Below, in pieces: positions 15,693 to 38,340 of a DNA stretch of 64,000 nt. The position numbers and the translations under genes were made by a program. The stretch lies in IMG/VR virus record IMGVR_UViG_3300044712_000123; one strand, written 5' to 3'. Numbering within the stretch: position 1 is the first letter of the stretch; each line of letters begins with the position of its first letter. The DNA comes from a virus (taxonomy: Duplodnaviria > Heunggongvirae > Uroviricota > Caudoviricetes). Below the pieces are notes generated by a model that worked only from the letters and a program-made list of their open reading frames with translations, did not search any database and was not told where the DNA came from.

Positions 15693-15700
15693 AAAGTACT

Positions 15701-15882: not shown

Positions 15883-15982
15883 TCTGTTTAAAAACAGTGT
15901 GACGTAGGTTGATGCTACTCTAGGGTAGACTGATACAGAGTAACAAGCTAGTGGAAATCACACATTAAACTAGCTAAACAGG

Positions 15983-16470: not shown

Positions 16471-16499
16471 GTTTTGAATAAAAACAAAAACAAATTCAT

Positions 16500-16575
16500 G
16501 CTCCGTTCGTCTATCGGTTTAGGACACCAGCCTTTCACGTTGGTAAGATGGGTTCGATTCCCATACGGAGTACCA
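16500..16575 (+). tRNA. tRNA-Glu(TTC)
   Basis: CCAGC ctTTCac GTTGG, CCA. Confidence 0.92.
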
Positions 16576-16582
16576 AGTTTAT

Positions 16583-16719
16583 GCGGTTAGTCTAGGGACA
16601 ACTCTGTGCCCGTATGTGAGTAGGAAGTAATTATCCGAGGGGCATACGGCGGTGGGAAGTGATATCACCCATTGTAAAATGACAAGACTAGTTGAGTTCG
16701 AATCTCAATGGCTGCACCA
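16583..16719 (+). ncRNA. 137-nt tRNA-like RNA: acceptor + T-arm + CCA around a non-tRNA core
   Basis: GCGGTTA/TGGCTGC-A-CCA; TTGAG ttcgaat CTCAA; CCGTATG/CATACGG hairpin. Confidence 0.6.
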
Positions 16720-16726
16720 AGATATT

Positions 16727-16803
16727 GCCCTTGTGATGGAATTGGTATACGTGCTTGACTCAAAATCAAGATTTTGCGGGTTCGAGTCCCGCTGGGGGCA
16801 CCA
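16727..16803 (+). tRNA. tRNA-Leu(CAA), short variable loop
   Basis: CTTGA ctCAAaa TCAAG, CCA. Confidence 0.88.
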
Positions 16804-16880
16804 AGTTTTGAAAGTTCGAAGAAACGCTATAAGGAAGTTACAGGTAGAACCTATCCTTGGTAAGTAACGAATTTTCTAAT

Positions 16881-16965
16881 GGAGATGAAGCATCAATGGT
16901 GATGCAGTGGACTGTAAATCCGCCGCTTTATAGCACGACTGGTTCGATCCCAGTAATCTCCACCA
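16881..16965 (+). tRNA. tRNA-Tyr(GTA)
   Basis: GTGGA ctGTAaa TCCGC, variable arm, CCA. Confidence 0.9.
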
Positions 16966-17079
16966 AGATCAACAATGAAGGATGTTTAAGACGGCTTGTA
17001 AACTTCATTGGATTCAGGAACAGATTGCCGTTAATTACTGAATCAAATTTATACTAAGACATTGTTTAGTAGTATGAGT

Positions 17080-17275
17080 AGATGGAAACCGACCCGGGAG
17101 AGACTTCCCGGGCTTCAATCAAGTGTGCATTGGTAGTTCAAGCAGATGCGATTGACGAACGATAAGCAAAGTCGGTCCAGTAGGGGTATGAAAAACATTG
17201 TCAGCGGGGACGCTGTTACCAGTCAGAAGTTAAAACTAGCGTAGGCTAGGGATAACGCCGTGTAATCTGGATCAA
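17080..17275 (+). ncRNA. Structured non-coding segment of unknown type
   Basis: ACCGAC/GTCGGT, CCCGGGA/TCCCGGG, CAGC gggga CGCTG hairpins; no credible ORF. Confidence 0.35.
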
Positions 17276-17280
17276 ATTTC

Positions 17281-17357
17281 GCTTCGTTAGCTCAGTTGGT
17301 TAGATCGCCACACTGTCACTGTGGAGGCCAGGGGTTCGAGTCCCCTACGAGGCGCCA
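17281..17357 (+). tRNA. tRNA-Asp(GTC)
   Basis: CCACA ctGTCac TGTGG, CCA. Confidence 0.9.
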
Positions 17358-17408
17358 AACACGCATTATCATGTGAGTGTCACATGATATGTAAGTCTAA
17401 TCTAATAT

Positions 17409-17483
17409 GGTCGGGTGGCAGAGCGATTATGCGGCGGATTGCAAATCCGTCTTAGGTAGGTTTGACTCCTATCTCGACCTCCA
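17409..17483 (+). tRNA. tRNA-Cys(GCA)
   Basis: GCGGA ttGCAaa TCCGT, U73, CCA. Confidence 0.88.
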
Positions 17484-17567
17484 AGGCAAATAGATATCTT
17501 GTTTTGATGCATGGTATCTCAACGGTTGTAAGTGACGATGGGTGCTATCGGAACTTACGCAAATTTT

Positions 17568-17639
17568 GAAGTGAGTAGATGCTAGTTCGATTCTAGCCCT
17601 GCGTAAGAGTAGCATAATTTGGCAATGCAACTTACTTCA
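17568..17639 (+). ncRNA. YrlA-like permuted tRNA mimic (stem, T-arm, short capped acceptor, D-arm, stem)
   Basis: GAAGTGAGT/ACTTACTTC; GCTAG ttcgatt CTAGC; GCAT aatttggca ATGC. Confidence 0.55.
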
Positions 17640-17649
17640 TCACGATTAT

Positions 17650-17737
17650 GGAGCATTGGCCGACCGGTTAAGGCAACAGATTGCTAATCTGTCATTCAGC
17701 AATGGGTGAGTAGGTTCGATTCCTACATGCTCCGCCA
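17650..17737 (+). tRNA. tRNA-Ser(GCT)
   Basis: ACAGA ttGCTaa TCTGT, long arm, CCA. Confidence 0.92.
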
Positions 17738-17886
17738 AAAACAGTCAAACATTCACTCTGACTTTAAACGTGTGATAATTTAAAAAGGAAAAATTGACAT
17801 GAAACGTTCAGGTAAACGATAGTGTCAACTACTGACCCCCATGTATGGTCGTAGTTGGCACGTAAAAGACAATCTAATACGTACAA

Positions 17887-17961
17887 CCCAGGGAAACTTT
17901 GATGGTGAAGTCCGGCCTCTTAAGCCGAGAGAACTGAGTTCGAATCTCAGCACTGGGACCA
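17887..17961 (+). tRNA. tRNA-Lys(CTT)
   Basis: CGGC ctCTTaa GCCG, CCA; atypical D-arm. Confidence 0.8.
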
Positions 17962-17966
17962 TATAT

Positions 17967-18041
17967 GGGGGTATAATTCAACGGCTAGAATATCCGGCTT
18001 TTAACCGGTCTATCAGAGTTCGATTCTCTGTGCCCCTACCA
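17967..18041 (+). tRNA. tRNA-Lys(TTT)
   Basis: CCGG ctTTTaa CCGG, CCA. Confidence 0.9.
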
Positions 18042-18167
18042 TATATATAAACATTTTTGACGGCCAGACCTCGCAATTGAAGCGAGTAATCTCGTCGGTG
18101 ACCTGGCAGTTGCGAAAGGTTCTTTGTGCCAGCATTGAACTGAAATCGAAAATGTTTTTATATATGG
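18039..18167 (+). ncRNA. Stem-bounded cassette
   Basis: CCATATATATAAACATTTTTGA / TCGAAAATGTTTTTATATATGG near-perfect inverted repeat. Confidence 0.45.
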
Positions 18168-18182
18168 TATAAATAATTTTAT

Positions 18183-18272
18183 GGAAACGTGGTCGAGTGG
18201 TCTATGGCTCCGGTCTTGAAAACCGGCGGACGTGAAAGCGTCCCGTGAGTTCGAATCTCACCGTTTCCGCCA
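18183..18272 (+). tRNA. tRNA-Ser(TGA)
   Basis: CCGGT ctTGAaa ACCGG, long arm, CCA. Confidence 0.93.
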
Positions 18273-18279
18273 ACAACAT

Positions 18280-18353
18280 ATCTCTTTGGTGTAATGGCAG
18301 CACTGCGGTCTCCAAAACCGTAAGTGGGGGTTCGAGTCCCTCAGGGGATGCCA
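18280..18353 (+). tRNA. tRNA-Trp(CCA)
   Basis: GCGGT ctCCAaa ACCGT, CCA end. Confidence 0.9.
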
Positions 18354-18360
18354 ATTTTTA

Positions 18361-18452
18361 GCCTCTATAGTTTAACGGTAAAACGGCGGATTTATATCCC
18401 GTAAGCAACAGATAATTGGTTCATCTGGGTTCGATTCCCGGTGGAGGCACCA
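18361..18452 (+). tRNA. tRNA-Ile(TAT) with long extra region
   Basis: GCGG-a ttTATat c-CCGT; about 22-nt variable region; CCA. Confidence 0.7.
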
Positions 18453-18459
18453 GAACGTT

Positions 18460-18537
18460 GCGCCCTTAGCTCATGCTGGTTAGAGCAGTGGACTCATAAT
18501 CCATTGGTGCTGTGTTCGACTCACAGAGGGCGCACCA
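18460..18537 (+). tRNA. tRNA(CAT): Ile2 or elongator Met
   Basis: GTGGA ctCATaa TCCAT, G1-C72, CCA. Confidence 0.88.
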
Positions 18538-18540
18538 TAA

Positions 18541-18683
18541 ATTAGTGTACTCAAAATTAATTTAGAGTATAATTTGCCAGACTCCGGTCTATCTATTGGT
18601 GCACACATTAGATGGGCTATGATACTATTTTAATTATAGAATCAATAGTATCTCTTTACAGTCTGCCAGCCGAGTACACTAAT
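18541..18683 (+). ncRNA. Stem-bounded cassette
   Basis: ATTAGTGTACTC/GAGTACACTAAT perfect 12-bp inverted repeat; inner CAGACT/AGTCTG and GATACTATT/AATAGTATC. Confidence 0.45.
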
Positions 18684-18692
18684 TTATGGTAG

Positions 18693-18806
18693 TTACAATG
18701 AATGTATGAAAGACAACGCAGATTCCATGTCAGTGAAAAATTTCAAGACTGTGGACACTGTGTACATATCATGCACGAGGATGTAACATGTATTGTCGTT
18801 AGACAT
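18693..18806 (-). CDS. Possible small hypothetical protein (37 aa)
   Basis: MSNDNTCYILVHDMY.. open frame. Confidence 0.3.
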   Translation of the reverse strand: MSNDNTCYILVHDMYTVSTVLKFFTDMESALSFIHSL

Positions 18807-18878
18807 TGACAGATGGATGTGTAATCCACTTTTAGTGATTGCGTCATATGTGTGCATCAAGTATTTATAAATATTCAC

Positions 18879-19673
18879 ATGAGTAAAATTCTGATTACAA
18901 GTGGATGTAGTTTTAGCGTTAATAACCTTAGAATTCCGGCAACATGGTCTACACACCTCGGTAATACGTTGTATCAATTAGATTATCATGCACACCGTAA
19001 CTCTGCTAGATCAAGTCAGGGTAATGGCTTGATAAGCAGAAGTACGATGTATAATGTTATTAGCGCATTGGAAACATACAAGCCCGAAGATATCTTAGTG
19101 GGTGTCATGTGGTCAGGAGCAAGTCGCCATGATTATAGATGCACTGATAGTAAAGACCTGCAGTTTGTTCAAGCTAATATAAACAACGGTTGGATTAAGA
19201 ATCCAAATCAGTTTGTTAAAAATGCTCCTGACAATTGGGTCATGCTTACGGCAGCTTGGGCTGATGGTAGCTACGGTTCCGTAGTCAAAGAAGCTGAACT
19301 GTACTACAGACATTTTTACGATGAGATTGGTAGCTCAATTCAATCAATTGAGCATATACTGCGTTTGCAACTGTTTTTAGAATCAAAGAAAATTCCATAC
19401 TTCTTTACTAACTACAGCGATCAAAACATAGTAAGAGACTATCTAAAGGAAAATATCGAGATAAAATATTTGTACGATCAAATAGATTTTTCAAAGTATC
19501 TTCCAGTTAGTAGTGAATTTAGATGGTGTTACGATAACTCTAAGTTCACACATTTGTGGCCAGAGAATTGGAGAGATCAGATATCTCTTCATCCAAAACC
19601 AGAAATGCACAAAGAATTTGTTGACCAAGTTATAATGCCTTGGTTACAAGAAAAATACGCGGGGTTGGTATAG
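18879..19673 (+). CDS. Hypothetical protein, SGNH-like
   Basis: LITSGCSFS..SQGNGLI..GVMWSG..SLHP; TATAAATA at 18866; stop inside tRNA-Gly. Confidence 0.7.
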   Translation: MSKILITSGCSFSVNNLRIPATWSTHLGNTLYQLDYHAHRNSARSSQGNGLISRSTMYNVISALETYKPEDILVGVMWSGASRHDYRCTDSKDLQFVQANINNGWIKNPNQFVKNAPDNWVMLTAAWADGSYGSVVKEAELYYRHFYDEIGSSIQSIEHILRLQLFLESKKIPYFFTNYSDQNIVRDYLKENIEIKYLYDQIDFSKYLPVSSEFRWCYDNSKFTHLWPENWRDQISLHPKPEMHKEFVDQVIMPWLQEKYAGLV

Positions 19674-19732
19674 TGGCTGTGCTCTAGCCTTCCAAGCTAG
19701 TAAGACGAGTTCGATCCTCGTACCCCGCTCCA
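19659..19732 (+). tRNA. tRNA-Gly(TCC)
   Basis: CTAGC ctTCCaa GCTAG, CCA. Confidence 0.9.
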
Positions 19733-19737
19733 CTTTT

Positions 19738-19847
19738 AGGATGTTTACAGCAAACAATCGTTTAAGGTTCAACTCCTTATTTTGCCACCAAACGCTCGAA
19801 AGGGCATCGGCAGAGTCGCGCAATGGGCGCAATCTACACATCCTGTT
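19738..19847 (+). ncRNA. CAGCAA-module RNA carrying a permuted tRNA with internal ACCA
   Basis: AGGATGT-TTACAGCAA..TAAGG ttcaact CCTTA-TTTTGCC-ACCA..GGCAGAG-TC-GCGC aatgg GCGC..ACATCCT-GTT. Confidence 0.7.
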
Positions 19848-19880
19848 ATATTTTGGTCAACGACTTGAAAATAGTTGTTG

Positions 19881-19950
19881 ACAATAAATCAAAGAACTGA
19901 TACAATACATGTATTGACACTGAGAAATCGGTGATGTTCTTTAAAAATTT
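19881..19950 (+). promoter_or_regulatory. sigma70 promoter + boxB-like hairpin + boxA-like sequence
   Basis: TTGACA-17-TACAAT; CACTGA gaaa TCGGTG; TGTTCTTTAAAAATTT. Confidence 0.65.
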
Positions 19951-19963
19951 AAGCTAAGAATTT

Positions 19964-20085
19964 TCTTAGCATTGTTGAGTATACTAACTTACAGCACAGC
20001 CGAATCTGTGTGTAACTCCTAGTCGTAACTTATTGTGAGAAATAAGGGAGTGTATGTCTCACTAGTGTATTCAACAATGTTAAGA
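19964..20085 (+). ncRNA. Stem-bounded cassette
   Basis: TCTTAGCATTGTTGAGTATACT / AGTGTATTCAACAATGTTAAGA. Confidence 0.5.
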
Positions 20086-20098
20086 TTTTAAAAGATAT

Positions 20099-20963
20099 GG
20101 GGGCTTAGCCTCATTAGAATAAGCATAGTGATATGCCCAAAGCGGTCGTCTCCTACAGACCCGCGCTAGAAATAGTTCATCTAAGCAAGCCTGCTTACAC
20201 CCGTGAGGGTGCGATCACTGATAAGACCGGTGGTTGTAACTGTAAAGCAAGTGTGTTGGAAAGAATGTCTGTTTATGTTCCCGTGAGGGTAAGACAGGCG
20301 GACAGAGAGTAACAGGTGGTGCTGACCTCAACACAAAACCAACTTGTCAACAGGTATAAGAAAAGGTAGTGTATTGATTCGAGGGGTTGCACCCAAGAGT
20401 TCGTATGCAGTTTGAGTGGTTAGTGGATATGTATGGTAACAGGCATATACACCGATCGTGAAAGACGACTGAGTAGTTCGCAAGACAAAAGGTACGTGGC
20501 GTGTTGTATTTTGTAGTCCAAAAGATTATGAAGCAACTGAGACAGCACATCACAGTAGGTTGTTATAGATCATTGGTAGATCAATTCTCTGTTAAAGAAT
20601 AGGCAGCAGGTTCAATTCCCGCTAACAAATAAAAAAGCAAAGTCTGTCTCGGTTGTATGTGAAAAGCATCTAATACTGGAGCCGCAAGGTAATTCAGTCA
20701 GACGTAACTCGCAAGGTGAAATCTGTTTATGCAGGAAGTTTCGTAAGTTGTTAGCGCAACTGAATGGCTCGCAAGGTCAGCGGAGTAGAAAGCGTAGAAT
20801 AGCATACAATGTCAAGTCTAATGCCTGACTTAAAACGGCGATGTTGGTAACAGACTAGGATACTCAGCAATGAGGCTTAGTGGAAATCAGAAGAAAGCAG
20901 TCTCGCAAGGATTGTAATAATGTCTGAGGTGTTACTCGGTAAGGATGTATTCTCAGTCCTCCA
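20099..20963 (+). ncRNA. GOLLD-like giant structured RNA (about 865 nt)
   Basis: ORF-free; many GNRA hairpins; GGGGGCT/AGTCCTCC end pairing; ACTGAGACAG/CTGTCTCGGT long-range pairing; located in a tRNA cluster and carrying an internal tRNA. Confidence 0.65.
20559..20629 (+). tRNA. tRNA-Asn(GTT)-like domain embedded in the giant RNA; no CCA
   Basis: GATC attggta GATC; ATTCT ctGTTaa AGAAT; GCAGG ttcaatt CCCGC; TTGTTA/TAACAA. Confidence 0.7.
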
Positions 20964-21036
20964 CTATTCTAAAGCACATTAAAGTAGCGACTATTGCTGG
21001 AGGCGGTAGCACGTAATTAGTGTGTTTCAGAATAGT
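20963..21036 (+). repeat. Stem-bounded element, copy 2 of the ATTCTAAA..TGTGTTTCAGAAT family
   Basis: ACTATTCTAAAGCACATT / AGTGTGTTTCAGAATAGT. Confidence 0.6.
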
Positions 21037-21268
21037 AAATTACTGGCTCCAAAGGCAAAGTGATACTATACGGTGTGTTCAGCATCGTGAGAGCAAAAGT
21101 TAGATACAAGATTGCAAAGCGAAGTTAATTAACGCAGTTCGGTCGCTACAGAATATCGGGTTACTCCCGACGGTGGGACTGTATTATTAACCAGCAAAGA
21201 ACGATTGGATAGGATTTGATCACCTTGAATGTCGTAAGCATCAAGTTGAAACGCTAACAACTGGACAC

Positions 21269-21335
21269 CATTCTAAAACACATTTCGAGTCCATGTCTCT
21301 TCCGTAATTAAGGAAGGATAGTGTGTTTCAGTATG
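21269..21335 (+). repeat. Stem-bounded element, copy 3 of the same family
   Basis: CATTCTAAAACACATT / AGTGTGTTTCAGTATG. Confidence 0.6.
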
Positions 21336-21418
21336 AGTAATTACATGAACAACTCAGATCACTCGCTTATCCCATAGATAAGAAAGAGGGTCGTAGTTAC
21401 TCGTATAAATAGTTTTAT

Positions 21419-21495
21419 GCACCGGTGATGGAATTGGTATACGTGTTGGTCTTAGAAGCCAAATTTTGTGGGTTCGAGTCCCACCCGGTGCACCA
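21419..21495 (+). tRNA. tRNA-Leu(TAG), short variable loop
   Basis: TTGGT ctTAGaa GCCAA, CCA. Confidence 0.9.
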
Positions 21496-21660
21496 TACTA
21501 TAGTATACTCTTGTCATATTGGGGGACATAGCTTGCCCGTATAGTTAGGGGAATCCGTTCGCTCTAACGAGTGCTATATCTCAGATGTTCGAAAGTCTGG
21601 TTTAAGGTATACTACGAAGTTACAGTGCTTGACACGCATTGGGAGTGTATTATAGTATGG
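21493..21660 (+). ncRNA. Stem-bounded cassette
   Basis: CCATACTATAGTATACTCT / GGAGTGTATTATAGTATGG. Confidence 0.45.
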
Positions 21661-21667
21661 TAAATTT

Positions 21668-21751
21668 GCGACTGTGGTGTAATTGGTAGCCACAGCAGAC
21701 TTAAAATCTGCCGCCTAGTGCGTACCGGTTCGAGTCCGGTCAGTCGCACCA
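21668..21751 (+). tRNA. tRNA-Leu(TAA)
   Basis: GCAGA ctTAAaa TCTGC, variable arm, CCA. Confidence 0.93.
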
Positions 21752-21808
21752 AAGAACTCTCCCTTACATACGGAGTACAATGAGACAAGTAGTATGTAAC
21801 GAATAATT

Positions 21809-21884
21809 GGGGGTGTAGCTCAACTGGGAGAGCGTCTGATTTGCATTCAGAAGGTCGCGGGTTCGATCCCTGTCACCTCCACCA
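21809..21884 (+). tRNA. tRNA-Ala(TGC)
   Basis: TCTGA ttTGCat TCAGA, G3.U70, CCA. Confidence 0.93.
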
Positions 21885-21894
21885 AGTATCATGT

Positions 21895-21968
21895 TGCGGG
21901 CGAGTGTGATGGTAGCACGTTGGGCTCATAACCCAGAGGGCCGGTTCGATTCCGAGGCTACGCAACCA
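21895..21968 (+). tRNA. tRNA-fMet(CAT)-like, irregular acceptor
   Basis: TTGGG ctCATaa CCCAG (3 G-C pairs), CCA. Confidence 0.7.
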
Positions 21969-21975
21969 AATTTAT

Positions 21976-22049
21976 AGCGGGTAGGGCGGTCACCACTTCA
22001 GTCTCATAAGCTCGGAGCATCGGCAGTTCGAATCTGTCACCCGCATCCA
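21976..22049 (+). tRNA. Degenerate tRNA-Met(CAT)-like
   Basis: ctCATaa loop, A1:A72 mismatch, weak D and anticodon stems, T-arm and CCA intact. Confidence 0.5.
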
Positions 22050-22060
22050 AATTGACCTTT

Positions 22061-22179
22061 AGGTTCATTTCAGCAATCAAAATAATCTTTCTGTAAAAAA
22101 GAGGGACTGGGTTCGAATCCCAGCAGTGAGTTGGTCTTCACTGTGGTGTAATGGTAGCACGAAAAAAGTTGAACCTGTT
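22061..22179 (+). ncRNA. CAGCAA-module RNA carrying a complete circularly permuted tRNA-Tyr(GTA)
   Basis: AGGTTCA-TTTCAGCAA..TCTTT ctGTAaa AAAGA..CTGGG ttcgaat CCCAG-CAGTGAG/TTCACTG-TG-GTGT aatggt AGCAC..TGAACCT-GTT. Confidence 0.8.
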
Positions 22180-22197
22180 AACGCAAATAAATACAGC

Positions 22198-22839
22198 ATG
22201 AAGAAATCGGCTGATGATATTTTATTTGCAAGTGTAAATCTTCCAATCTTAGACAAAAAACTAGCCGCTAAAGAAATTTTAGCACTAGGTGATGAAGTGT
22301 CTTATTGGAATGATTATCGATACACAAAGATGATTCCATTAATGACAAAAGGTGGCGCCGGTCAACGAATTGGCGCTGACAATAGTAGACCTGGAGATTT
22401 TGATTGGACATCTTATGCTCCTAATGTCATTGTCGATTGGTTCGAAGAACATGTTTTTCCCTGGCTAGGTGGACGTTATCGTGTTATGGCATTGATAACA
22501 CAGCCCGGAGTAGCAAATCATGAACACATCGATTGTAACCCTGACGAACTAAATACACTTCAACATAAGTTTAGAATTGTATTACAGGGTAAGACAAGTA
22601 CATTGTATTGGTTAACGGACAACGGCAACGTTTATGTACCTGATACAGAGAAAGCATTTATCATGGATGGCGGTTGGCCTCATGGTATGACAAATACAAC
22701 TGACGAGATTAAAGTAACATTGGCATTGGGTGCCCCCTGGGTAGGCAATGAAAGTTACGGTGATGATATCACTATCTTGCAGAGAAGACAAGATTATAGA
22801 ATGCCAGAGAAGATAGATCATCTTTGGCAAAAGAGTTAA
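22198..22839 (+). CDS. Aspartyl/asparaginyl beta-hydroxylase-like 2OG-Fe(II) oxygenase
   Basis: NHEHID..HKFRIVL..MDGGWPHGMTN. Confidence 0.75.
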   Translation: MKKSADDILFASVNLPILDKKLAAKEILALGDEVSYWNDYRYTKMIPLMTKGGAGQRIGADNSRPGDFDWTSYAPNVIVDWFEEHVFPWLGGRYRVMALITQPGVANHEHIDCNPDELNTLQHKFRIVLQGKTSTLYWLTDNGNVYVPDTEKAFIMDGGWPHGMTNTTDEIKVTLALGAPWVGNESYGDDITILQRRQDYRMPEKIDHLWQKS

Positions 22840-22843
22840 TATT

Positions 22844-22921
22844 CGGAGTGTAGCGCAGTCTGGTTAGCGCACCTGCTTTGGGAGCAGGGGGTCCAAGGTT
22901 CGAATCCTTGTACTCCGACCA
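22844..22921 (+). tRNA. tRNA-Pro(TGG)
   Basis: CCTGC ttTGGga GCAGG, CCA. Confidence 0.95.
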
Positions 22922-22926
22922 ATCAT

Positions 22927-23001
22927 GCATCGTTAGTTCAGCGGTAGAACTCCATCCTTACACGGTGGCTGTCGGCGGTTCGATCCCGTCACGATGTACC
23001 A
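22927..23001 (+). tRNA. tRNA-Val(TAC)
   Basis: CCATC ctTACac GGTGG, CCA. Confidence 0.92.
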
Positions 23002-28406: not shown

Positions 28407-29138
28407 ATGGATGATACGAAAATTTTCTGGCGCAGACATGAGCTACCTGTTGCAGAGTACTTAATGTCACATCAAGCTGGGTTGCGTGATGATTTCATGA
28501 GAGGTTTTGCAACCTTAGAGGAAGCAGCAAAAGCCCAAACTGAGGGTATTATGGCTAAAGAATGGCGCTTAAAGGATCGTATTAGACGCGGATTCTCAAA
28601 GGAAGATACAGAAAATTGTGTCACCACCGGTGATTCTGCAAATCTTGAGGGATGGAGAGCTATGCCCCTTCGTTACGAAAGACATGACGACATTAATATT
28701 AGTTATACAGCACCTGAGTCCTTTAAGGAAAGGTATCCAACTGCATATAAACTAATAACAGAATACGGGGATGACTGCCCAATCTCAAATTATACAGTTC
28801 TCGCTCCCAACACTGTATTGCATAGACATACTGGTGTTGAAAATCGCACAGGTGAATACATCCGTATCCACATCCCATTGATAATCCCTGAGGGTGATGT
28901 ATTCTTTGAAGCGAACAACGAAGAAATAGATTGGTCTGACATTTGGGGATTTCATAATCAGTTTGCACACTCTGCACACAACTATACAAACGAATGGCGT
29001 TTAGTATACCTAATAGACCTTCGCAGAACTTCTATCGGTCTGCCACCAGGAATGCCATATGATCCAAAATATGAATCAACAAACATGGCTCCGTTCGTAA
29101 GAAAAAATAAACCAAATCAGTTACCCAAAACTGTTTGA
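28407..29138 (+). CDS. Aspartyl/asparaginyl beta-hydroxylase-like oxygenase
   Basis: LHRHTG..RIHIPLIIP..FHNQFAHSAHN..RLVYLID. Confidence 0.85.
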   Translation: MDDTKIFWRRHELPVAEYLMSHQAGLRDDFMRGFATLEEAAKAQTEGIMAKEWRLKDRIRRGFSKEDTENCVTTGDSANLEGWRAMPLRYERHDDINISYTAPESFKERYPTAYKLITEYGDDCPISNYTVLAPNTVLHRHTGVENRTGEYIRIHIPLIIPEGDVFFEANNEEIDWSDIWGFHNQFAHSAHNYTNEWRLVYLIDLRRTSIGLPPGMPYDPKYESTNMAPFVRKNKPNQLPKTV

Positions 29139-29163
29139 CAACAACACTAAATTGTTATACAAT
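29135..29163 (+). promoter_or_regulatory. sigma70 promoter of ncRNA cluster
   Basis: TTGACA-17-TACAAT. Confidence 0.7.
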
Positions 29164-29184
29164 ACTTGTATTGAATGATTCAAA

Positions 29185-29440
29185 GGGATGATTTCAGAAT
29201 TTAAAAACATACTTAACTAATTACCATAGAAGGTGGTCGTAGGACACAGTAGCAATACTGTTCTAGGAAACTAGACTCGAAGGAATGGATGACAGAATGG
29301 AAAGACATTCTATGATGTTTGTACAGACACAATACAAACTAGTCAACATGAATTGTTGATATGGTTGAGGAACGTAAGTCCTTTATAGGTGAGTTAGACT
29401 CAACCAGACAATAAAATAAACTACGTTCAGACATCCCGTT
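29185..29440 (+). ncRNA. Long variant CAGCAA-module RNA with multi-hairpin cargo
   Basis: GGGATG-ATTTCAGAA..CATCCC-GTT; hairpins ACAGTA gcaa TACTGT, CTAG gaaa CTAG, GTTTGTA/TACAAAC, TCAACA/TGTTGA, TGGTTGAG/CTCAACCA. Confidence 0.6.
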
Positions 29441-29449
29441 TAATTTTTT

Positions 29450-29600
29450 AGGATCGGTACAGCAATAATTTACTTTATTGGAACTGATGGATCGCATGGT
29501 AGCTATTGGAGTCTACGGACGTTGAAGGTAGTTATTGAAATGCATCTATCGCAATAGGAGTGATGGCCCTATTCAAAAAGCAGTCAACAACGATCCTGTT
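29450..29600 (+). ncRNA. CAGCAA-module RNA with about 115-nt cargo
   Basis: AGGATCG-GTACAGCAA ... CGATCCT-GTT; inner ACTG/CAGT, GATGGAT/ATCTATC, AATAGG/CCTATT. Confidence 0.7.
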
Positions 29601-29626
29601 ATTTTTCGTATCATTGCAAAAAAGTG

Positions 29627-29655
29627 TTGACAAATAACACAAACAATGATACAAT
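29627..29655 (+). promoter_or_regulatory. sigma70 promoter; predicted start at the module RNA 29663
   Basis: TTGACA-17-TACAAT. Confidence 0.7.
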
Positions 29656-29662
29656 ACATTTT

Positions 29663-29719
29663 AGGATGCATTCAGCAACTTTAATCTTTTTCATAATAAG
29701 AGCAAAAGCGCATCCTGTT
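29663..29719 (+). ncRNA. CAGCAA-module RNA carrying a Met(CAT) anticodon stem-loop
   Basis: AGGATGC-ATTCAGCAA..TCTT-t ttCATaa t-AAGA..GCATCCT-GTT. Confidence 0.72.
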
Positions 29720-29744
29720 GCAAAATTCATAGAAAGGAACTATA

Positions 29745-31169
29745 ATGCAATTCGCAGAAGCAATCAAAAACCAAGAAGTTCGTACTACTAATGGTATGAA
29801 GGCACGTAAGTCAAGCGCAAACGCTTGTGTAGACTTGTTCTACAACCTAGGTGCAAGCCGAGGTAAAAACGTTATCCCAGCATTCACTGCGGCTTATGTC
29901 GAGAACAGTGATCTGGCACTGCGTATTGCACAGTGGGCACGTGATGCCCGCGGTGGTTCCGGTGAACGCCAAGTGTTCCGAGATATTCTTGTTCACTTGG
30001 AAAAGACTAACCCAGAAGACGCTATGCGTTTGATGGCGAAGATCCCAGAAATCGGTCGTTATGACGACTTGCTAGTGTTTAAGACTCAGCCTGTGAAGGC
30101 TAAGGCATACACTATGCTTGGCGATGCACTTCGTGCCCGTAACGGTCTCGCGGCTAAGTGGACTCCTCGTAAGGGTGAAGTCGCACGTGAAATCCGCGAA
30201 TTCTTCGGAATGACTCCTAAGCAATACCGTAAGAGCCTTGTTGCACTTACTAACGTTGTGGAAACACAAATGTGTGCTAAGGATTGGGATAACATCAACT
30301 TCTCGCATGTTCCTTCAGTGGCACATGCACGTTACAAGAAGGCGTTTGGCCGTAATGGCACAACTTACGCTGAATACGTAACTAAGTTGGTTAAGGGCGA
30401 AGCAGGTGTCAAAATCAACGCTGGTGCAGTTTTCCCTTACGATGTGTTGAAGGGTGCTATCAACCGATACAGCCGTTCAGCTATGTCTAAGACTGAGTTG
30501 GATGCATTGCAAGCCCAATGGGACGCATTGCCTAACTACGTCGGTGACGCTAACGTGTTGCCTATGGTTGACTCGTCAGGTTCGATGACTTGCGCGGCAG
30601 GTGGTTACAACTCTAAGTCAGGCTTGTCTTGCTTGGATGTTGCACTGTCTTTGGGCTTGTACTTCGCTGACAAGAACAAGGGTAAGTTCAAGGATACGTT
30701 CTTGACTTTCTCTAACACACCAAAGTTGGTTAACTTGAAGGGTAACATCAATCAAAAGATTGACCAAATGAACACAGGCGAAGTTGCTAACACCAACTTG
30801 AATGCGGCGTTCAACTTGATCCTCAAGACAGCGTTGGACAACAATGTTCCTCAAGCAGAAATGCCAGAAACATTGGTGATCTTCTCTGACATGCAGTTCG
30901 ACCAAGGCGTTAAGCACGATGACAGCGCAATCGAAATGATTGCACGTAAGTATGAAGCCGCAGGCTACGCGATCCCTAAGGTCGTGTTCTGGAACTTGAA
31001 TGCCGCTTATGGCAACACCCCTGTCAAGTTCGATAAGAGTGGTACCGCTCTTGTCTCTGGTTTCAGCCCAGCTGTTGCAACTTCTGTATTGTCAGGAGAC
31101 TTGGAAGACTTCACACCAGAAGCTATCATGTTGAAGACAGTTATGAAGGATCGTTACGACTTGTCGTAA
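29745..31169 (+). CDS. DUF2828-family TROVE-like/vWA protein (Ro60-like architecture)
   Basis: N-terminal TTNG..VDLF..RDARGGSGERQVF..GRYDDL..AKWTPR helical region; vWA MIDAS VDSSGSM..T..SDMQFD..VFWNL..VSGFS. Confidence 0.8.
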   Translation: MQFAEAIKNQEVRTTNGMKARKSSANACVDLFYNLGASRGKNVIPAFTAAYVENSDLALRIAQWARDARGGSGERQVFRDILVHLEKTNPEDAMRLMAKIPEIGRYDDLLVFKTQPVKAKAYTMLGDALRARNGLAAKWTPRKGEVAREIREFFGMTPKQYRKSLVALTNVVETQMCAKDWDNINFSHVPSVAHARYKKAFGRNGTTYAEYVTKLVKGEAGVKINAGAVFPYDVLKGAINRYSRSAMSKTELDALQAQWDALPNYVGDANVLPMVDSSGSMTCAAGGYNSKSGLSCLDVALSLGLYFADKNKGKFKDTFLTFSNTPKLVNLKGNINQKIDQMNTGEVANTNLNAAFNLILKTALDNNVPQAEMPETLVIFSDMQFDQGVKHDDSAIEMIARKYEAAGYAIPKVVFWNLNAAYGNTPVKFDKSGTALVSGFSPAVATSVLSGDLEDFTPEAIMLKTVMKDRYDLS

Positions 31170-33534: not shown

Positions 33535-33708
33535 ATGAAACAAGTCGTTTACAAAGGTTCAGTGTTAGCTAAAGGTAGTACTGCACTTGAACTGTGGGAA
33601 AACTGGCAAAAAGAAAAGAAAGATCGGAACGCCGCTCAAAAGAAGCTGGACGTCCATATGAAAGAAGTCGAACAGCGTCACCGAGACTTGCTGGATCGAT
33701 ACAAATAA
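33535..33708 (+). CDS. Small hypothetical protein (57 aa)
   Basis: Downstream of TTGACT-17-TATAAT at 33476. Confidence 0.6.
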   Translation: MKQVVYKGSVLAKGSTALELWENWQKEKKDRNAAQKKLDVHMKEVEQRHRDLLDRYK

Positions 33709-33722
33709 GAAAAGAGAATAAT

Positions 33723-34190
33723 ATGCCTTGGATTGAAAATTGTGCGGCTGATGATATCCCAAAGAGATTTCACCACGAAGCCGGTGAGAATAGTATGCTG
33801 ATTAGCATTACAGACCCAGCAAGTTGGAGACCAACTCCTGCTCACAAGTTCAAAGAGATTCACAATTTTGAATTCTTGGATATTGAAAAAGACGATTTTG
33901 CATTGGACGAGGCAATGCGTTGTAGTCAAGAGCAAGCAAACGAATTAGTCCGATTGTTGCAACATGCAAAGGAAAATCGAATGAACGTTGTGGTTCATTG
34001 CTTTGCAGGTATCTGTCGCAGTGGTGCAGTGTGTGAGGTTGGTGTCATGATGGGTTTTGAAGACACTGGCAGATTTCGCAGTCCTAACTTGCTTGTCAAG
34101 CATCGCATGATGCGCGCCCTCGGCTGGACCTACGATGAGGATGAGAAACCGAATGTCGATGACTGGAGAACTTTTAGGAACGACAATTAA
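33723..34190 (+). CDS. Protein-tyrosine/dual-specificity phosphatase-like protein
   Basis: VVVHCFAGICRSG (CX5R). Confidence 0.85.
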   Translation: MPWIENCAADDIPKRFHHEAGENSMLISITDPASWRPTPAHKFKEIHNFEFLDIEKDDFALDEAMRCSQEQANELVRLLQHAKENRMNVVVHCFAGICRSGAVCEVGVMMGFEDTGRFRSPNLLVKHRMMRALGWTYDEDEKPNVDDWRTFRNDN

Positions 34191-34235
34191 TGATAAAAGT
34201 GCTTGGTTGGGATAAATAAGTATATAGGAGAAATC

Positions 34236-34886
34236 ATGAATACTTATCCAACTAAAGCAAAACCGTATGTTTATCGCTGTACTAACAAAATCACTGGTCA
34301 TTTTTATATAGGATATCGTGAGGCGAATGTTAAACTGAATAGGATACCAGAAATTGATTTTCCGTTATATAAGAGTTCTTCAAAAGCAGTTAAGGACAAC
34401 TTTGACAATTTTGAATGGACTATCGTAGCAGAATTTGAGACTGGTAAAGATGCGTATTCATTTGAGCAAAAATTGATTCATGAGCACTGGAATGAACCAT
34501 TACTCTTGAACGAACATTGCTGTCACAATGAACAACAATTCAGAAGATCGGCACCACCGTGGAATAAAGGAAGAACAGGGTTATATAGCAGAACTGATGA
34601 TACCAGGCAGAAAATAAAACAAAAACGAGCACTTCAAGTTATGGGAGAATCTCCTTTAAAGGGAAAGTCATATAATGATATTCACGGGGAAGATGCAGTA
34701 TCTTTGAAGAAGAAAATTTCTGAAAAAATGTTAAGCGCAGGTATAAAAAGAACCGAAGAGTTTAAAGAAAATTTGAGAAAACCAAAAGAGAAAATCACTT
34801 GCCCACATTGCGGTAAAACAGGGGGTGGTGGTTCAATGATTCAATGGCACTTTGATAAATGTAAAAATAGGAATTTAGATGTTTAA
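34236..34886 (+). CDS. GIY-YIG homing endonuclease with NUMOD3-like repeats
   Basis: YVYRCTNKITGHFYIGYR; PWNKG; TRQKIK; C-terminal CPHCGK..WHFDKC. Confidence 0.8.
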   Translation: MNTYPTKAKPYVYRCTNKITGHFYIGYREANVKLNRIPEIDFPLYKSSSKAVKDNFDNFEWTIVAEFETGKDAYSFEQKLIHEHWNEPLLLNEHCCHNEQQFRRSAPPWNKGRTGLYSRTDDTRQKIKQKRALQVMGESPLKGKSYNDIHGEDAVSLKKKISEKMLSAGIKRTEEFKENLRKPKEKITCPHCGKTGGGGSMIQWHFDKCKNRNLDV

Positions 34887-35109
34887 AGTAATAGGCAAAG
34901 ATGTAGAATATGAAGTTCATTCACTGGATGACGCCATGTTCTTGGCAAAAAAGATGAACGAATTCGTGACCATACGTGGTCAAGATGGAATGGAATTTGT
35001 AGGCAAGTTTGGTGTTGATTCAGTGAAAGATGGTAAGTGCCCTGACGGTGTCGCTTACGACTGGAACAAGGCATCACGCATCGGTGCTCCAAAACGAGTC
35101 AGAGTTTAA
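34879..35109 (+). CDS. Hypothetical protein
   Basis: 76 aa coupled ORF. Confidence 0.7.
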   Translation: MFKVIGKDVEYEVHSLDDAMFLAKKMNEFVTIRGQDGMEFVGKFGVDSVKDGKCPDGVAYDWNKASRIGAPKRVRV

Positions 35110-35112
35110 TAC

Positions 35113-35141
35113 TTGACAATAAATCGGTTTGGGCATATAAT
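35113..35141 (+). promoter_or_regulatory. Early sigma70 promoter; family copies at 36389, 40561, 41022, 42356, 42783, 43067, 49888, 50304, 63873
   Basis: TTGACAATAAAT or TTGACTTTAAT, 17-bp spacer, TATAAT/TACAAT/TATACT. Confidence 0.85.
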
Positions 35142-35168
35142 CAATCTATTGAATGAAAGGAGCATAGT

Positions 35169-35360
35169 ATGGGTTACAATACAAAACACTTTGACCATGA
35201 AGCACACTATGCTTCCAAGTCAACAAAAGAACTTGAGGCACTGTTAAAACAGGCTGAAAAGTTTGTACAGGATCATCCTAAGTTTGAATTCAGTTGGCAC
35301 AATGAGTATCGCCATAAATTGAAACTGTTGATTGCAGAAAGAATTGGAAAAAGAAAATGA
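35169..35360 (+). CDS. Hypothetical protein
   Basis: AGGAG RBS, 63 aa. Confidence 0.7.
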   Translation: MGYNTKHFDHEAHYASKSTKELEALLKQAEKFVQDHPKFEFSWHNEYRHKLKLLIAERIGKRK

Positions 35361-35899
35361 CAAAATGGATTACAAGTGACCTGCATTTCGGTCACGCAAA
35401 TATTATGAAGTTCTGCCCAGTAACACGGGCAGGCTTCACTGACACCGATCACATGCGTGAGCAAATGATCTCCGAGTGGAACCGTGACGTTAAGCCAGAA
35501 GATGAAACATTCATTCTGGGTGACTTTGCATTCTTGCCGGCTAAGGATGCAGTCGCAATCTTGCGCCGATTGAACGGTACAAAGATTTTGATTGAAGGTA
35601 ATCACGACCGCAAACTGTTGAACGACCCTAGTTTCCGTAATGAGTTCAAAGAAGTTCACCAGTACTTGCGTTATGTGCATGAAGGCACTACTGTGATTAT
35701 GTTGCACTATCCTATCTTGGAATGGGACCAGATGCATCGTGGAGCAGTTCATTTCTATGGACACGTTCATGGTGCAAAGACTGGTATGGAAAAGTATCGT
35801 TGTCGTGACGTAGCGTTTGACGCTACTGGTCGAGTTGTTAGCAACTTGGACATGATGATTAAAGACGCATTGAAAGGTGAGATTAAGTCTCACCACTAA
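35357..35899 (+). CDS. Calcineurin-like metallophosphoesterase
   Basis: SDLHFGH, LGDF, GNHD, HY, GHVH. Confidence 0.92.
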   Translation: MTKWITSDLHFGHANIMKFCPVTRAGFTDTDHMREQMISEWNRDVKPEDETFILGDFAFLPAKDAVAILRRLNGTKILIEGNHDRKLLNDPSFRNEFKEVHQYLRYVHEGTTVIMLHYPILEWDQMHRGAVHFYGHVHGAKTGMEKYRCRDVAFDATGRVVSNLDMMIKDALKGEIKSHH

Positions 35900-35908
35900 G
35901 GAGAAAGT

Positions 35909-36370
35909 ATGCCAAAGTGTTATCAACTGATTGGAGTGCCTGGCGCAGGCAAGAGTACTTGGATTAAGAACCAAGAGTGGGCTAACGATTGTGTGGTTGT
36001 TTCTACTGACGAGTTCGTAGAAGATTACGCAAAAGAAGTAGGCTCAACATACAGTGATGTATTTGACGACTACATGCCTACTGCTGTCAAGTTGATGGCT
36101 GATAAGGTTGTTCGTGCCCGTAATGCAGGTAAAGATATTATCTGGGACCAAACATCTACTAGCGAAGGCTCACGTAGAAAGAAGTTCAATATGTTACCTG
36201 ACTATGAACACATTGCGGTGGTGTTTAAGACTCCTGAAATGGATGAATTGAAGCGCCGTCTTGCATCGCGCCCAGGCAAGAATATCCCATCGCACGTGAT
36301 GGTTCAAATGATTCGCAGTTTTGTAATGCCCACACTAGATGAAGGCTTCACTGAAATTCGAGTAGTATAA
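35909..36370 (+). CDS. AAA_33 polynucleotide-kinase-like protein
   Basis: GVPGAGKST, STD, WDQT..R, RR..R. Confidence 0.88.
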   Translation: MPKCYQLIGVPGAGKSTWIKNQEWANDCVVVSTDEFVEDYAKEVGSTYSDVFDDYMPTAVKLMADKVVRARNAGKDIIWDQTSTSEGSRRKKFNMLPDYEHIAVVFKTPEMDELKRRLASRPGKNIPSHVMVQMIRSFVMPTLDEGFTEIRVV

Positions 36371-36447
36371 AGTATTACTTTTCAGTGGTTGACTTTAATT
36401 CAGTTTGGGCATATAATAGATACTTAGATTGATTAAAGGAGTGAGCA

Positions 36448-36984
36448 ATGGAAGGTTTTACATTTGAATTGTCGGGTATGGACATTGTCCAAAAGGCCCA
36501 GGTCTACGCCATTGCTGCTCACTCGGCTGTTCAGCAAAAGCGTAAGTACACTGGCGAACCCTACTTTGTTCACCCTGCAGAGGTTGCACAAATCGTAGCC
36601 AGTGTTCCAGGTTCTACTCCTGACATGGTTGCGGCAGCTTGGTTGCATGATGTTGTAGAAGACACTGGCTGCACATTCACTGACATTCACATGGCTTTCG
36701 GTATCGATATCGCTGTGTTGGTTCAGTGGTTGACTGACGTTTCTAAGCCCGAAGATGGCAATCGTGCTACTCGCAAGGCAATGGATCGTGAGCATACTGC
36801 ACAAGCACCTGCTGAGGCACAGACCATCAAGTTGGCAGATTTGATCTCCAACAGCAAGAGTATCATGGCACACGACCCTGACTTTGCCAAGACTTACTTG
36901 GAAGAAAAAAGATTGTTGTTGGCTGTGATGACTAAGGGTGATCGCGGCTTGCACGCCGAAGCTAGTAAGTACGTTGGAGTTTAA
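36448..36984 (+). CDS. RelA/SpoT-type HD hydrolase (Mesh1-like)
   Basis: AH..Q.RKYTGEPYFVHP.EVA..LHDVVEDT..KLADLISN. Confidence 0.88.
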   Translation: MEGFTFELSGMDIVQKAQVYAIAAHSAVQQKRKYTGEPYFVHPAEVAQIVASVPGSTPDMVAAAWLHDVVEDTGCTFTDIHMAFGIDIAVLVQWLTDVSKPEDGNRATRKAMDREHTAQAPAEAQTIKLADLISNSKSIMAHDPDFAKTYLEEKRLLLAVMTKGDRGLHAEASKYVGV

Positions 36985-36986
36985 GA

Positions 36987-37175
36987 ATGACTAATCCTGT
37001 AACCAAAGACAATTTAGTTCGAGGTGGTAAGTATAACTGGAAGTGGCAACCTGAACGACTAGTATACTTGCGTCAGGTTGGTGCATGGTATCAGTTTGCA
37101 TTGACTTCCAACCCTGAGAAGATTTGGTGCGAAGTTCTTGCAGAAGACTTGGAAATGTTTGAGGAAACAAAATGA
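36987..37175 (+). CDS. Hypothetical protein
   Basis: 62 aa ORF. Confidence 0.7.
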   Translation: MTNPVTKDNLVRGGKYNWKWQPERLVYLRQVGAWYQFALTSNPEKIWCEVLAEDLEMFEETK

Positions 37176-37438
37176 ACAAACAAATCAAAGAACTTGCTGA
37201 ACAGGCTGGACTCAGAATTGAGTATCAGATGATTAACCCGCCCAAGCCTTTTCAGATTCTTGGTAGTACTGAACAGTTTGAAAAGTTCGCCGAGTTGATT
37301 ATCAATGACTGTGCTAGTCTATGTGAGATTGAAAGCCGATCATACACTTATTCTTTCACACCAGCAAAGGCACGATTAGCAGAATCTACTGCAAAGAATT
37401 GCGGTACAATAATCAAACGACATTTTGGAGTCGAATAA
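37172..37438 (+). CDS. Small paralogous protein (IKELA.QA..EKFAELI..HFGVE family)
   Basis: Similar to 38963 and 51334. Confidence 0.75.
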   Translation: MNKQIKELAEQAGLRIEYQMINPPKPFQILGSTEQFEKFAELIINDCASLCEIESRSYTYSFTPAKARLAESTAKNCGTIIKRHFGVE

Positions 37439-38340
37439 TGTTTAAAGAAGAATTGAAAAAGTACGTAGAGACTTCGGGCCTAGTGAACATGAAAGAGGCT
37501 GGCGCCGGCATCTTCATCTTGAAGTATAAGAAGAAGGTGTTCTACGATAACCTGTGGAACGAGTACATCGCTGAATGCCGTGGATCAGTGATTGATAAGG
37601 ATTTCAACCTAGTTGCTTATCCCTTCACAAAAATCTACAACTATGGCATTGAGAAAGAAGCACCCGTGCTTTCTGACGACACTCAAGTAACTGCTTTCCG
37701 TAAGGTTAATGGTTTCATGGTTGCAGTTTCGTATCACAACGGTGACGTTTTTGTATCTACTACAGGTTCTACTTTGGGTGACTATGTTGGCTATGCTAAG
37801 GATATGATGCTAAAGCACATGCCCTGGAGTGACTGGCAAATGGCACTAGCAGCCGATGACTGCCGAGACATGACCTTCATGTTTGAGTGCGTACATCCCA
37901 ACGATCCTCATATCGTGGTTGAAAAGCCAGGTATGTACATCTTGGGTTATCGTGAAAAGACTTGGGGGTCTAAGGTAGGTCATGATGTTTTCATGCTACA
38001 AGAACTTGGTCATGTGTTCAACTGTTTTGTACCAGAAAGCGTAACAACTAACCTGGCACAACTAAAGATCATGGTCAAGGAATGTAAGCACGAAGGCTTT
38101 GTGTTCTATACACAGGACGGAGTTAGCTCTAAGATCAAGAGTCCATACTACTTGACTTCAAAGTGGGTAGCACGTAACCCTCGTACAGACAAGCTAGTTG
38201 ACCTGAACAAGGACATCAAGCAAAATCTGGACGAAGAATACTACCCACTAGTGGATGCAATTCGTGCTAACATCGTTGAATACACTAGTATGGACGAGCA
38301 AGCTCGCCTAGCATGGGTTCGTAATTTTGTGAGTGCGTGA
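37438..38340 (+). CDS. T4 Rnl1-like RNA ligase
   Basis: ECRG....PFTKIYN; motif I KVNG; TFMFE; EGFV; KIKS..Y. Confidence 0.85.
   Translation: MFKEELKKYVETSGLVNMKEAGAGIFILKYKKKVFYDNLWNEYIAECRGSVIDKDFNLVAYPFTKIYNYGIEKEAPVLSDDTQVTAFRKVNGFMVAVSYHNGDVFVSTTGSTLGDYVGYAKDMMLKHMPWSDWQMALAADDCRDMTFMFECVHPNDPHIVVEKPGMYILGYREKTWGSKVGHDVFMLQELGHVFNCFVPESVTTNLAQLKIMVKECKHEGFVFYTQDGVSSKIKSPYYLTSKWVARNPRTDKLVDLNKDIKQNLDEEYYPLVDAIRANIVEYTSMDEQARLAWVRNFVSA

Follow-up and report, generated by a model that had tools for sequence, protein, structure and literature searches.

Animals, some bacteria and a few phages are known to have Ro60-Y RNA particles. We describe a putative counterpart in a 64-kb stretch of viral DNA (64,000 nucleotides, G+C content 41%; hereafter the window) taken from the IMG/VR record IMGVR_UViG_3300044712_000123. 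The window contains a gene for a Ro60-like protein of 474 amino acids (29745..31169, + strand) and eight small RNAs, here called handle RNAs, which share a terminal frame with an unpaired (A/U)CAGCAA box. The protein and the handle RNAs probably form a viral RNA-protein particle. The pairing of gene and RNAs is real and widespread; no published description of the RNA family was found, and the fold class of the protein had already been recognised. In this DNA, a second, sequence-divergent branch of Ro60 comes with its own multi-copy RNA family.

Closest described systems

The Ro60 (Rsr)-Y RNA ribonucleoproteins include those with YrlA and YrlB RNAs (RF02553; PMC4201824) and that of Thermus phage phiLo, the Ro60 protein of which is PDB entry 9l5y (PMC12135203). 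Known Ro-binding motifs are GGUCCGA and GNCGAAN0-1G, and both RNase P and CCA addition act on the YrlA RNA of M. smegmatis (PMC4201824). The locus in the window resembles these systems in its ring and vWA/MIDAS protein, in small RNAs whose two ends pair into a closing stem and that carry a conserved motif on the side of the 5' strand, in RNA genes that adjoin the protein gene on the same strand, in its linkage to RNA-repair genes and in the tRNA-like module (T arm, closed acceptor hairpin, D arm) that some of the RNAs contain. It differs from them in that the phage protein belongs to DUF2828/DUF7788 and not to the TROVE model, and is about 60 residues shorter. The RNAs differ in their CAGCAA motif, in their eight copies with unrelated inserts, or cargos, and in the placement of one copy in the gene's own leader.

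A Ro60-like protein has also been reported from Bas63, a Felix O1-like phage, in which gp130 is encoded directly upstream of tRNA genes and counters the Ppl defence (preprint 10.1101/2024.10.10.617714); no partner RNA family was defined there. By its description, gp130 may be a member of the DUF2828 family; Bas63 did not appear in the 60 rows inspected out of 251 Felix O1-like records. Stable small RNAs that lie among phage tRNA genes and are co-released with the tRNAs are exemplified by rnaC and rnaD of T4 and by RNAI, RNAIII and the tRNA-like RNAs of T5, but T4 and T5 have neither a DUF7788 gene nor a match to the handle model described below.

The dictyostelid Class I RNAs (RF01414; PMC7919456) are eukaryotic, have their own upstream promoter element, are reported to be unique to Dictyostelia and are directly bound by the RRM protein Rnp1A (PMC7919456); another protein, DDB_G0281243, was pulled down with a Class I RNA. 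Like the handle RNAs, they have a terminal stem of about 6 bp with compensatory changes and a variable middle, a 5' strand directly followed by a conserved box that ends in CAGCAA, a conserved 5' G that pairs with the C in a 3' CUGU, short copies of about 60 nt and many genes per genome, often in clusters. In contrast to the Class I RNAs, the phage copies do not have an invariant U at motif position 3 and their cargos reach 100-250 nt, and the known Class I partner is Rnp1A rather than a Ro60-like protein. Literature searches on DUF2828, on Ro60-like proteins in connection with phages and tRNA, and on CAGCAA in connection with Y RNAs returned no description of the phage RNA family.

A Ro60-like fold predicted for the protein

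The first-pass annotation of this DNA had described the gene product as a helical protein with a vWA domain and a DxSxS motif, and the domain analysis agrees. A Pfam scan (E<=0.01) assigned a helical ring domain (DUF2828, 7.1e-25) and a vWA/MIDAS domain (DUF7788, 2.8e-42), with no other family, and PHROG 850 carries the label 'RNA-binding protein'. In a set of 133 homologues with 41-58% identity, which served for both the AlphaFold2 model and the conservation analysis, the MIDAS residues D276-x-S278-x-S280, T350 and D382 were invariant, and many basic residues of the helical domain were also invariant or nearly so.

Searches of the PDB sequences with the single protein sequence gave no matches. 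A profile search returned Ro60/TROVE proteins as its top four matches; these were weak and limited to the MIDAS region, where the profile aligned the protein's MIDAS stretch to that of Ro60. Since the sequence searches were empty or weak, a search by fold was needed. The AlphaFold2 model was of high predicted quality (pLDDT 93.1, pTM 0.92), and Foldseek compared it with solved structures at E<=1e-3: 13 of 13 matches were Ro60/TROVE proteins. The corresponding search of Swiss-Prot structures returned Ro60 of five species, Tetrahymena p80 and TEP1. As in Ro60, the modelled chain consists over its whole length of a ring of helical repeats followed by a vWA domain. The model thus indicates that the gene product is a divergent member of the Ro60 structural class, with a helical ring and a vWA/MIDAS domain, in line with the earlier suggestion that it is a Ro60 counterpart.

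The protein family is large, with 5977 cluster representatives at E<=1e-3. It is carried by 702 deposited phage records, including Felix O1-like, KVP40-like and Listeria P100/A511-like phages and cluster E mycobacteriophages, and it also occurs in giant-virus clusters; the clusters listed for it are mainly viral. Identity to the Felix O1-like proteins is about 39%. The cluster E homologues are annotated as 'Ro-like RNA binding protein'; together with the preprint on Bas63 gp130, such annotations mean that the Ro60 likeness of the protein is already known.

Eight handle RNAs in the window

The common frame of the handle RNAs consists of a 6-7 bp stem formed by the RNA's own ends, followed on the 5' side by the unpaired box; on the 3' side, an A-rich stretch precedes the 3' strand, and the end of the RNA reads C-U-G-U. 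Allowing at most one mismatch, AGGATNNNNWCAGCAA was found at seven sites, all on the + strand, as compared to 0.79 expected and a maximum of 3 in 100 shuffles. Each of the seven sites is followed 56-150 nt downstream by a perfect 7-bp complement and then GT. A covariance model of the handle (R1), used to scan both strands of the window with filters off, recovered the canonical copies and nothing else at E<2. In total, three handle RNAs lie beside the gene and five in the tRNA island. The first-pass annotation had counted seven copies in the island, and this number was too high by both the motif scan and R1.

The three RNAs beside the gene had been described as sharing one frame. This holds for two of them, whereas the first is degenerate. 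This large handle RNA of about 257 nt (29185..29441, + strand) has a 6-bp stem, GGGAUG/CAUCCC, the box CAGAAU (CAGAAT in the DNA) and a 3' GUU; its fold z-score is -3.99, and in its relatives the box reads CAGCAT, CAGCAC or CAGCAA. The second (29450..29599, + strand, 150 nt) has the canonical form AGGAUCG-GUA-CAGCAA ... CGAUCCU-GUU and a fold z-score of -3.13; its cargo is structured, is not tRNA-like and is conserved in relatives. The third, the leader handle RNA (29663..29718, + strand, 56 nt; AGGATGC-ATT-CAGCAA ... GCATCCT-GTT), scored 66.6 bits with R1, and its 3' stem strand extends to 29716, leaving 28 nt up to the ATG of the Ro60-like gene.

Two sigma-70 promoters had also been proposed, and two matches to 11 of the 12 consensus positions, both TTGACA-17-TACAAT on the + strand, are indeed present; we treat them as consensus matches and refer to them as promoter-like. 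P1 (29135..29163) lies ahead of the large handle RNA. P2 (29627..29655) has a TG before the second hexamer, and transcription from it would be expected to start at about 29662-29663, which is about the first base of the leader handle.

The five island copies, all on the + strand, are located 5-26 nt from neighbouring tRNAs, a spacing like that of tRNA genes, and U-rich tracts follow several of the handle copies. The first island RNA (8660..8723, 64 nt, R1 65 bits) lies between tRNA-Ala and tRNA-Gln and displays an anticodon-like cargo loop, CUUUUAA. The next (9618..9677, 60 nt, R1 52.9 bits) begins 5 nt after a tRNA-Gly. It is followed by a 122-nt RNA with a YrlA-type cargo (10160..10281, R1 22.8-36.5 bits), a 109-nt RNA with a tRNA-elbow-like cargo 5 nt after another tRNA-Gly (19738..19846, z-score -2.40, R1 34.1 bits) and a 118-nt RNA with the covarying stem AGGUUCA/UGAACCU (22061..22178, z-score -2.19, R1 33.6 bits). 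At gathering thresholds, Rfam identified only tRNAs and a GOLLD RNA in the window, so that the handle RNAs belong to no curated family.

Three further candidates were rejected. The segment 10034-10152 is a tRNA-like gene that was not called by ARAGORN, with D and T arms and the acceptor stem GCCGCUG/CGGCGGC; where the anticodon region would be, it has an insertion of about 60 nt with ACAGCAAC, so that the box lies inside the insertion. The occurrence of AGGATACTCAGCAA inside the GOLLD RNA is not a handle, as the 3' partner is absent. A stretch after the gene (31165-31420) that includes ACAGCAA was considered as an extra RNA, but its predicted fold is no more stable than those of shuffled sequences (z-score -0.61).

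Covariation of the handle and structure of the cargos

Covariation was assessed by aligning 26 short copies that represent six phage lineages. Two-sided changes were observed at six of the seven stem pairs (38 compensatory cells in total), as the RNA structure proposed earlier would predict. The G at stem position 2, the CAGCA of the box and the C..G of the 3' end are invariant. Stem pairing was 100%, as compared to 32-48% when the 3' strand was slid; the former value is partly built in, because the scan that selected the copies required perfect pairing, and the covariation therefore weighs more than the pairing percentage. The cargos are conserved as structures as well: in the multi-helix cargo of the large RNA, 25 of the 40 predicted pairs are maintained through two-sided changes among 11 relatives.

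Such conservation also bears on the proposal that the handle RNAs are tRNA genes in decay or selfish repeats, such as those targeted by or travelling with the homing endonucleases that are common in islands of this kind, a highly improbable and disfavoured reading: T-arm and D-arm pieces are present in three cargos and GIY-YIG genes lie nearby, but the handle is kept across phages with proteins that are only 30-47% identical, and decay would not maintain the strict strand bias, the compensatory changes and the fixed position in the leader.

Three cargos (10160, 19738 and 22061) combine a T arm with a closed acceptor-like hairpin (7 bp in the RNA at 22061) and a D arm, corresponding to the tRNA elbow of YrlA; the other five lack this arrangement. 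The Rfam YrlA model (RF02553) aligned over its full length to 10178-10280 with 34.2 bits, below its gathering score of 69. Judged from the sequences, the case for a separate RNA class is fair, because three of the RNAs have YrlA-type cargos and the box is unlike the known Ro-binding motifs. A weak match to the same model (24.5 bits, E 0.18) was observed at 17556-17655, between tRNA-Cys and tRNA-Ser; this segment contains the T-arm-like GCUAGUUCGAUUCUAGC, and a CAGCAA handle was looked for there and not found.

The short cargos of the relatives point to a second type. Among 59 distinct short cargos, many of them related and thus not independent events, 19 have a hairpin in which a stem of 4 bp or more closes a 7-nt loop with U at position 2 and a purine at position 6, as compared to 2.5 on average and a maximum of 7 in shuffled cargos. 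Most of these loops are of the form C-U-NNN-A-A and thus anticodon-loop-like: CUUCUAA, CUUGAAA, CUUGUAA, CUGUAAA and CUUUUAA (relatives L001-L083 and the RNA at 8660-8723), and CUGCUAA in Mycobacterium phage Snenia (L084).

Co-occurrence of the handle with DUF2828 genes

At E<=1e-3, R1 gave 94 hits in 58 sources, all on the strand of the gene. Of 54 close relatives, with protein identities of 73-99%, 53 have a leader copy for which the R1 match ends 19-35 nt upstream of the ATG. The association of the handle with DUF2828 genes, which the first-pass annotation had anticipated, extends to distant phages. Whole records of nine phages with proteins 30-47% identical to the window protein were scanned, and in seven of these R1 found copies beside the gene or in its tRNA array and nowhere else in the record.

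In Snenia, the hits lie beside the gene, with three handle RNAs just after it, one of which has a YrlA-type cargo. Vibrio phage KVP40 has a hit in its tRNA array, and in the Felix O1-like phage Andreotti the array with the hits adjoins the gene. Hits are located directly upstream of the gene in Listeria phage P100plus, between the tRNA array and the gene in Bacillus phage Izhevsk and directly after the gene in Staphylococcus phage S-CoN_Ph10; in Synechococcus phage BUCT-ZZ01, one of the hits lies about 100 nt upstream of the gene. The controls T4, T5 and Bxz1 lack DUF7788 and gave no R1 hit at E<0.3. Bxz1 carries a canonical TROVE Ro, which is matched by the TROVE Pfam model, and has no handle, so that the handle appears tied to the DUF2828 branch and not to Ro proteins generally.

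Two observations concern the annotation of these records. In S-CoN_Ph10 (OR354833.1), a 29-codon 'hypothetical protein' (80572-80661) overlies the handle RNA hit at 80580-80652 (37 bits). In Campylobacter phage Los1 (L092:1913-2326), an 'empty' stretch of 1.3 kb before the gene contains several unannotated tRNAs and two handle RNAs.

Presence in metatranscriptomes

Assembled metatranscriptome contigs provided the evidence on expression, and pieces of the RNA region are present in them, as expected if the RNAs are made; the pieces come without ends or strand. Contigs from four freshwater or river metatranscriptomes of four studies map to 29242-29583 and to the Ro60-like gene, with almost nothing on the 2 kb upstream. 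One contig is identical to 29242-29430 within the large RNA, and short contigs cover 29387-29583. In one run, separate contigs (171 and 60 nt, recorded depth about 1490) cover the RNA region, and contigs on the gene had depths of 13 and 52; per-contig depth is a poor measure of level, and these values fit abundant small RNAs.

RNA-repair genes downstream of the locus

A cluster of genes for RNA end healing and sealing (33594..38340, + strand) is located 2.4-7 kb downstream of the Ro60-like gene. By Pfam, it encodes a DSP-type phosphatase (33594-34190), a weak Metallophos match (35357-35899), an AAA_33 P-loop kinase (35909-36370), an HD domain protein (36448-36984) and a T4 Rnl1-family RNA ligase (37399-38340), all on the + strand; a GIY-YIG gene is present among them. 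In T4, Rnl1 together with a kinase-phosphatase heals tRNA that has been cut by a host anticodon nuclease. One relative (L001) also has the DSP phosphatase, the AAA_33 kinase and Metallophos downstream of its Ro60-like gene, and P100plus has RtcB 1.3 kb downstream of its DUF2828 gene. In Snenia and Andreotti, there are no repair genes near the DUF2828 gene.

Proposed mechanism and alternatives

We propose that the eight RNAs are Y-RNA-like partners of the Ro60-like protein. The protein would recognise the handle, and RNAs with variable cargos that mimic parts of tRNA would thereby be held and protected. A cargo may present the elbow of a tRNA, as YrlA does, or an anticodon stem-loop, or adopt another conserved fold. 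The island RNAs are probably released by tRNA-processing enzymes, and the copies beside the gene would use promoters of their own. The copy in the leader, at about 24 nt from the start codon, could allow the protein to bind its own mRNA in a feedback loop, or it may merely be made together with the mRNA.

Judged from the neighbouring genes and one published phenotype, the most likely role would lie in a conflict over tRNA; the tRNA-like cargos and the neighbouring genes for a T4-like Rnl1 ligase, kinase and phosphatase suggest such a contest. The particle might present tRNA-cutting or tRNA-processing enzymes of the host with mimics that act as decoys or adaptors, or it could bring damaged RNA to the phage kinase, phosphatase and ligase. 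Taken as a whole, with handle binding, display of mimics of tRNA parts, feedback through the leader and a role as decoy, adaptor or carrier to repair, we regard this mechanism as rather probable. If the pairing of protein and RNAs is real, arbitrary RNA cargos could be loaded onto the phage protein through a defined handle, an identity would be given to many 'gaps' left without annotation in phage tRNA islands, and a mechanism would be on offer for a reported anti-defence gene (Bas63 gp130 versus Ppl).

Several points weigh against the proposal. The TROVE Pfam model (PF05731) does not match the 474-residue protein at E<=0.01, and identity to Ro60 is 12-16%; given Ro60/TROVE fold matches without a TROVE Pfam match, the protein is therefore Ro60 in architecture and not a member of the TROVE family by sequence. 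Neither GGUCCGA nor GNCGAAN0-1G was found in the handle RNAs, which have (A/U)CAGCAA instead, and the first-pass annotation was right to set its motif apart from the Ro-binding sequence of Y RNAs. The copies used to count covariation were chosen for their pairing, as stated above. R1 missed two of the nine distant phages, Campylobacter phage Los1 and Fusobacterium phage Fnu1: two copies with a shorter stem-to-box spacing were seen by eye in the leader of Los1, and a convincing copy was not found in Fnu1, where a candidate (L095 2850-2935) was AT-rich and rejected. The co-occurrence sample is small, with nine phages that carry the gene and three that do not. The metatranscriptome contigs give neither RNA ends, strand nor level, and DNA carry-over into the RNA libraries is possible. 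The anti-defence role is drawn by analogy from one preprint about another phage, and binding of the handle RNAs by this protein family is what we infer from fold and co-occurrence.

One alternative is that another factor reads the handle and that the Ro60-like protein is a mere neighbour acting on, for example, damaged tRNA or rRNA. Candidate readers would be Rnl1, the kinase and phosphatase or RtcB, the host tRNA enzymes RNase P, RNase Z, CCA-adding enzyme and PNPase, or an RRM-type protein. The repair genes are linked to the locus both here and in relatives, and the RNAs occupy tRNA slots and mimic tRNA parts. There is precedent for either type of reader, as YrlA of M. smegmatis is acted on by RNase P and CCA addition (PMC4201824) and the look-alike Class I RNAs directly bind an RRM protein, Rnp1A (PMC7919456). 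However, the DUF2828 gene adjoins the RNAs in every lineage examined, whereas the repair genes vary, and it is the leader of this gene that holds a copy in 53 of 54 relatives. Moreover, the only solved proteins of this fold, Ro60, bind the end-to-end stem of small RNAs. We therefore consider a different reader unlikely.

The modules could also act in cis, as punctuation for the processing, stability or termination of tRNA operons and leaders, with no function in trans. The tRNA-like spacing of 5-26 nt, the U-rich tracts after several copies and the copy in an mRNA leader would all fit such a role. Punctuation needs neither an invariant unpaired CAGCAA box nor conserved, covarying cargos such as that of the large RNA, and T4, T5 and Bxz1 have tRNA arrays that manage without such modules. 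Two of the units beside the gene each have a separate promoter match, and the RNA region is represented by short, separate metatranscriptome contigs. A purely cis-acting role is thus distinctly improbable, and the Ro60-like particle remains the interpretation that we prefer.

Possible relation to Class I RNAs

The likeness to dictyostelid Class I RNAs offers a secondary clue to a question of long standing. A full-length alignment to RF01414 scored 26.6 bits at 29664-29717 and 23.1-24.2 bits in three other phage lineages, in all four cases below the gathering score of 41.5. That the phage handle RNAs and the Class I RNAs form one class, with a Ro60-fold protein of the DUF2828 type as natural partner, is in our view very doubtful. 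If it were true, the Class I RNAs would be analogues of Y RNAs, perhaps gained by way of viruses; the question of their function dates from 2004, and the idea would point to a specific amoebal protein. The 30 Swiss-Prot structure matches listed include no DUF2828-family entry, amoebal or other, a result that is not decisive.

The tRNA island and other neighbouring features

Freshwater, rhizosphere and wastewater samples have yielded IMG/VR and metagenome contigs, up to about 360 kb long, that encode close relatives of the Ro60-like protein, and because of the length of these contigs the window looks like a piece of a jumbo phage. It contains 49 tRNA genes, 47 of them in the island at 7.9-23.0 kb (7899..23001, + strand), where the five handle RNAs occupy tRNA-like slots. 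One tRNA called by ARAGORN (15579-15665) has a four-base anticodon (ttga) and an enlarged loop, scores 35.8 bits with the Rfam tRNA model and may be of the frameshift-suppressor type or aberrant.

The GOLLD RNA (RF02032, 215.7 bits) lies inside the island at 20496-20959, with a tRNA-Asn (20558-20631) embedded within it. In Listeria phage P100plus, the region about 1 kb upstream of the DUF2828 gene holds a ROOL-like RNA (L087:4462-5013; RF03087, 86 bits, below the gathering score of 99.1). In at least these two phages, the Ro60-like gene thus travels with tRNA arrays and large ornate RNAs.

Between the tRNA island and the locus, eight + strand open reading frames of 177-228 amino acids (23092-27730) are arranged back-to-back and mostly overlap. 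None has a Pfam match at E<=1e-3, and they may represent an array of paralogues. The locus itself is flanked by two predicted dioxygenase-type genes, one of the Asp/Arg beta-hydroxylase family (28407-29138, + strand, E 6e-13) and one for a 2OG-Fe(II) oxygenase (31373-31942, - strand, E 1.8e-10).

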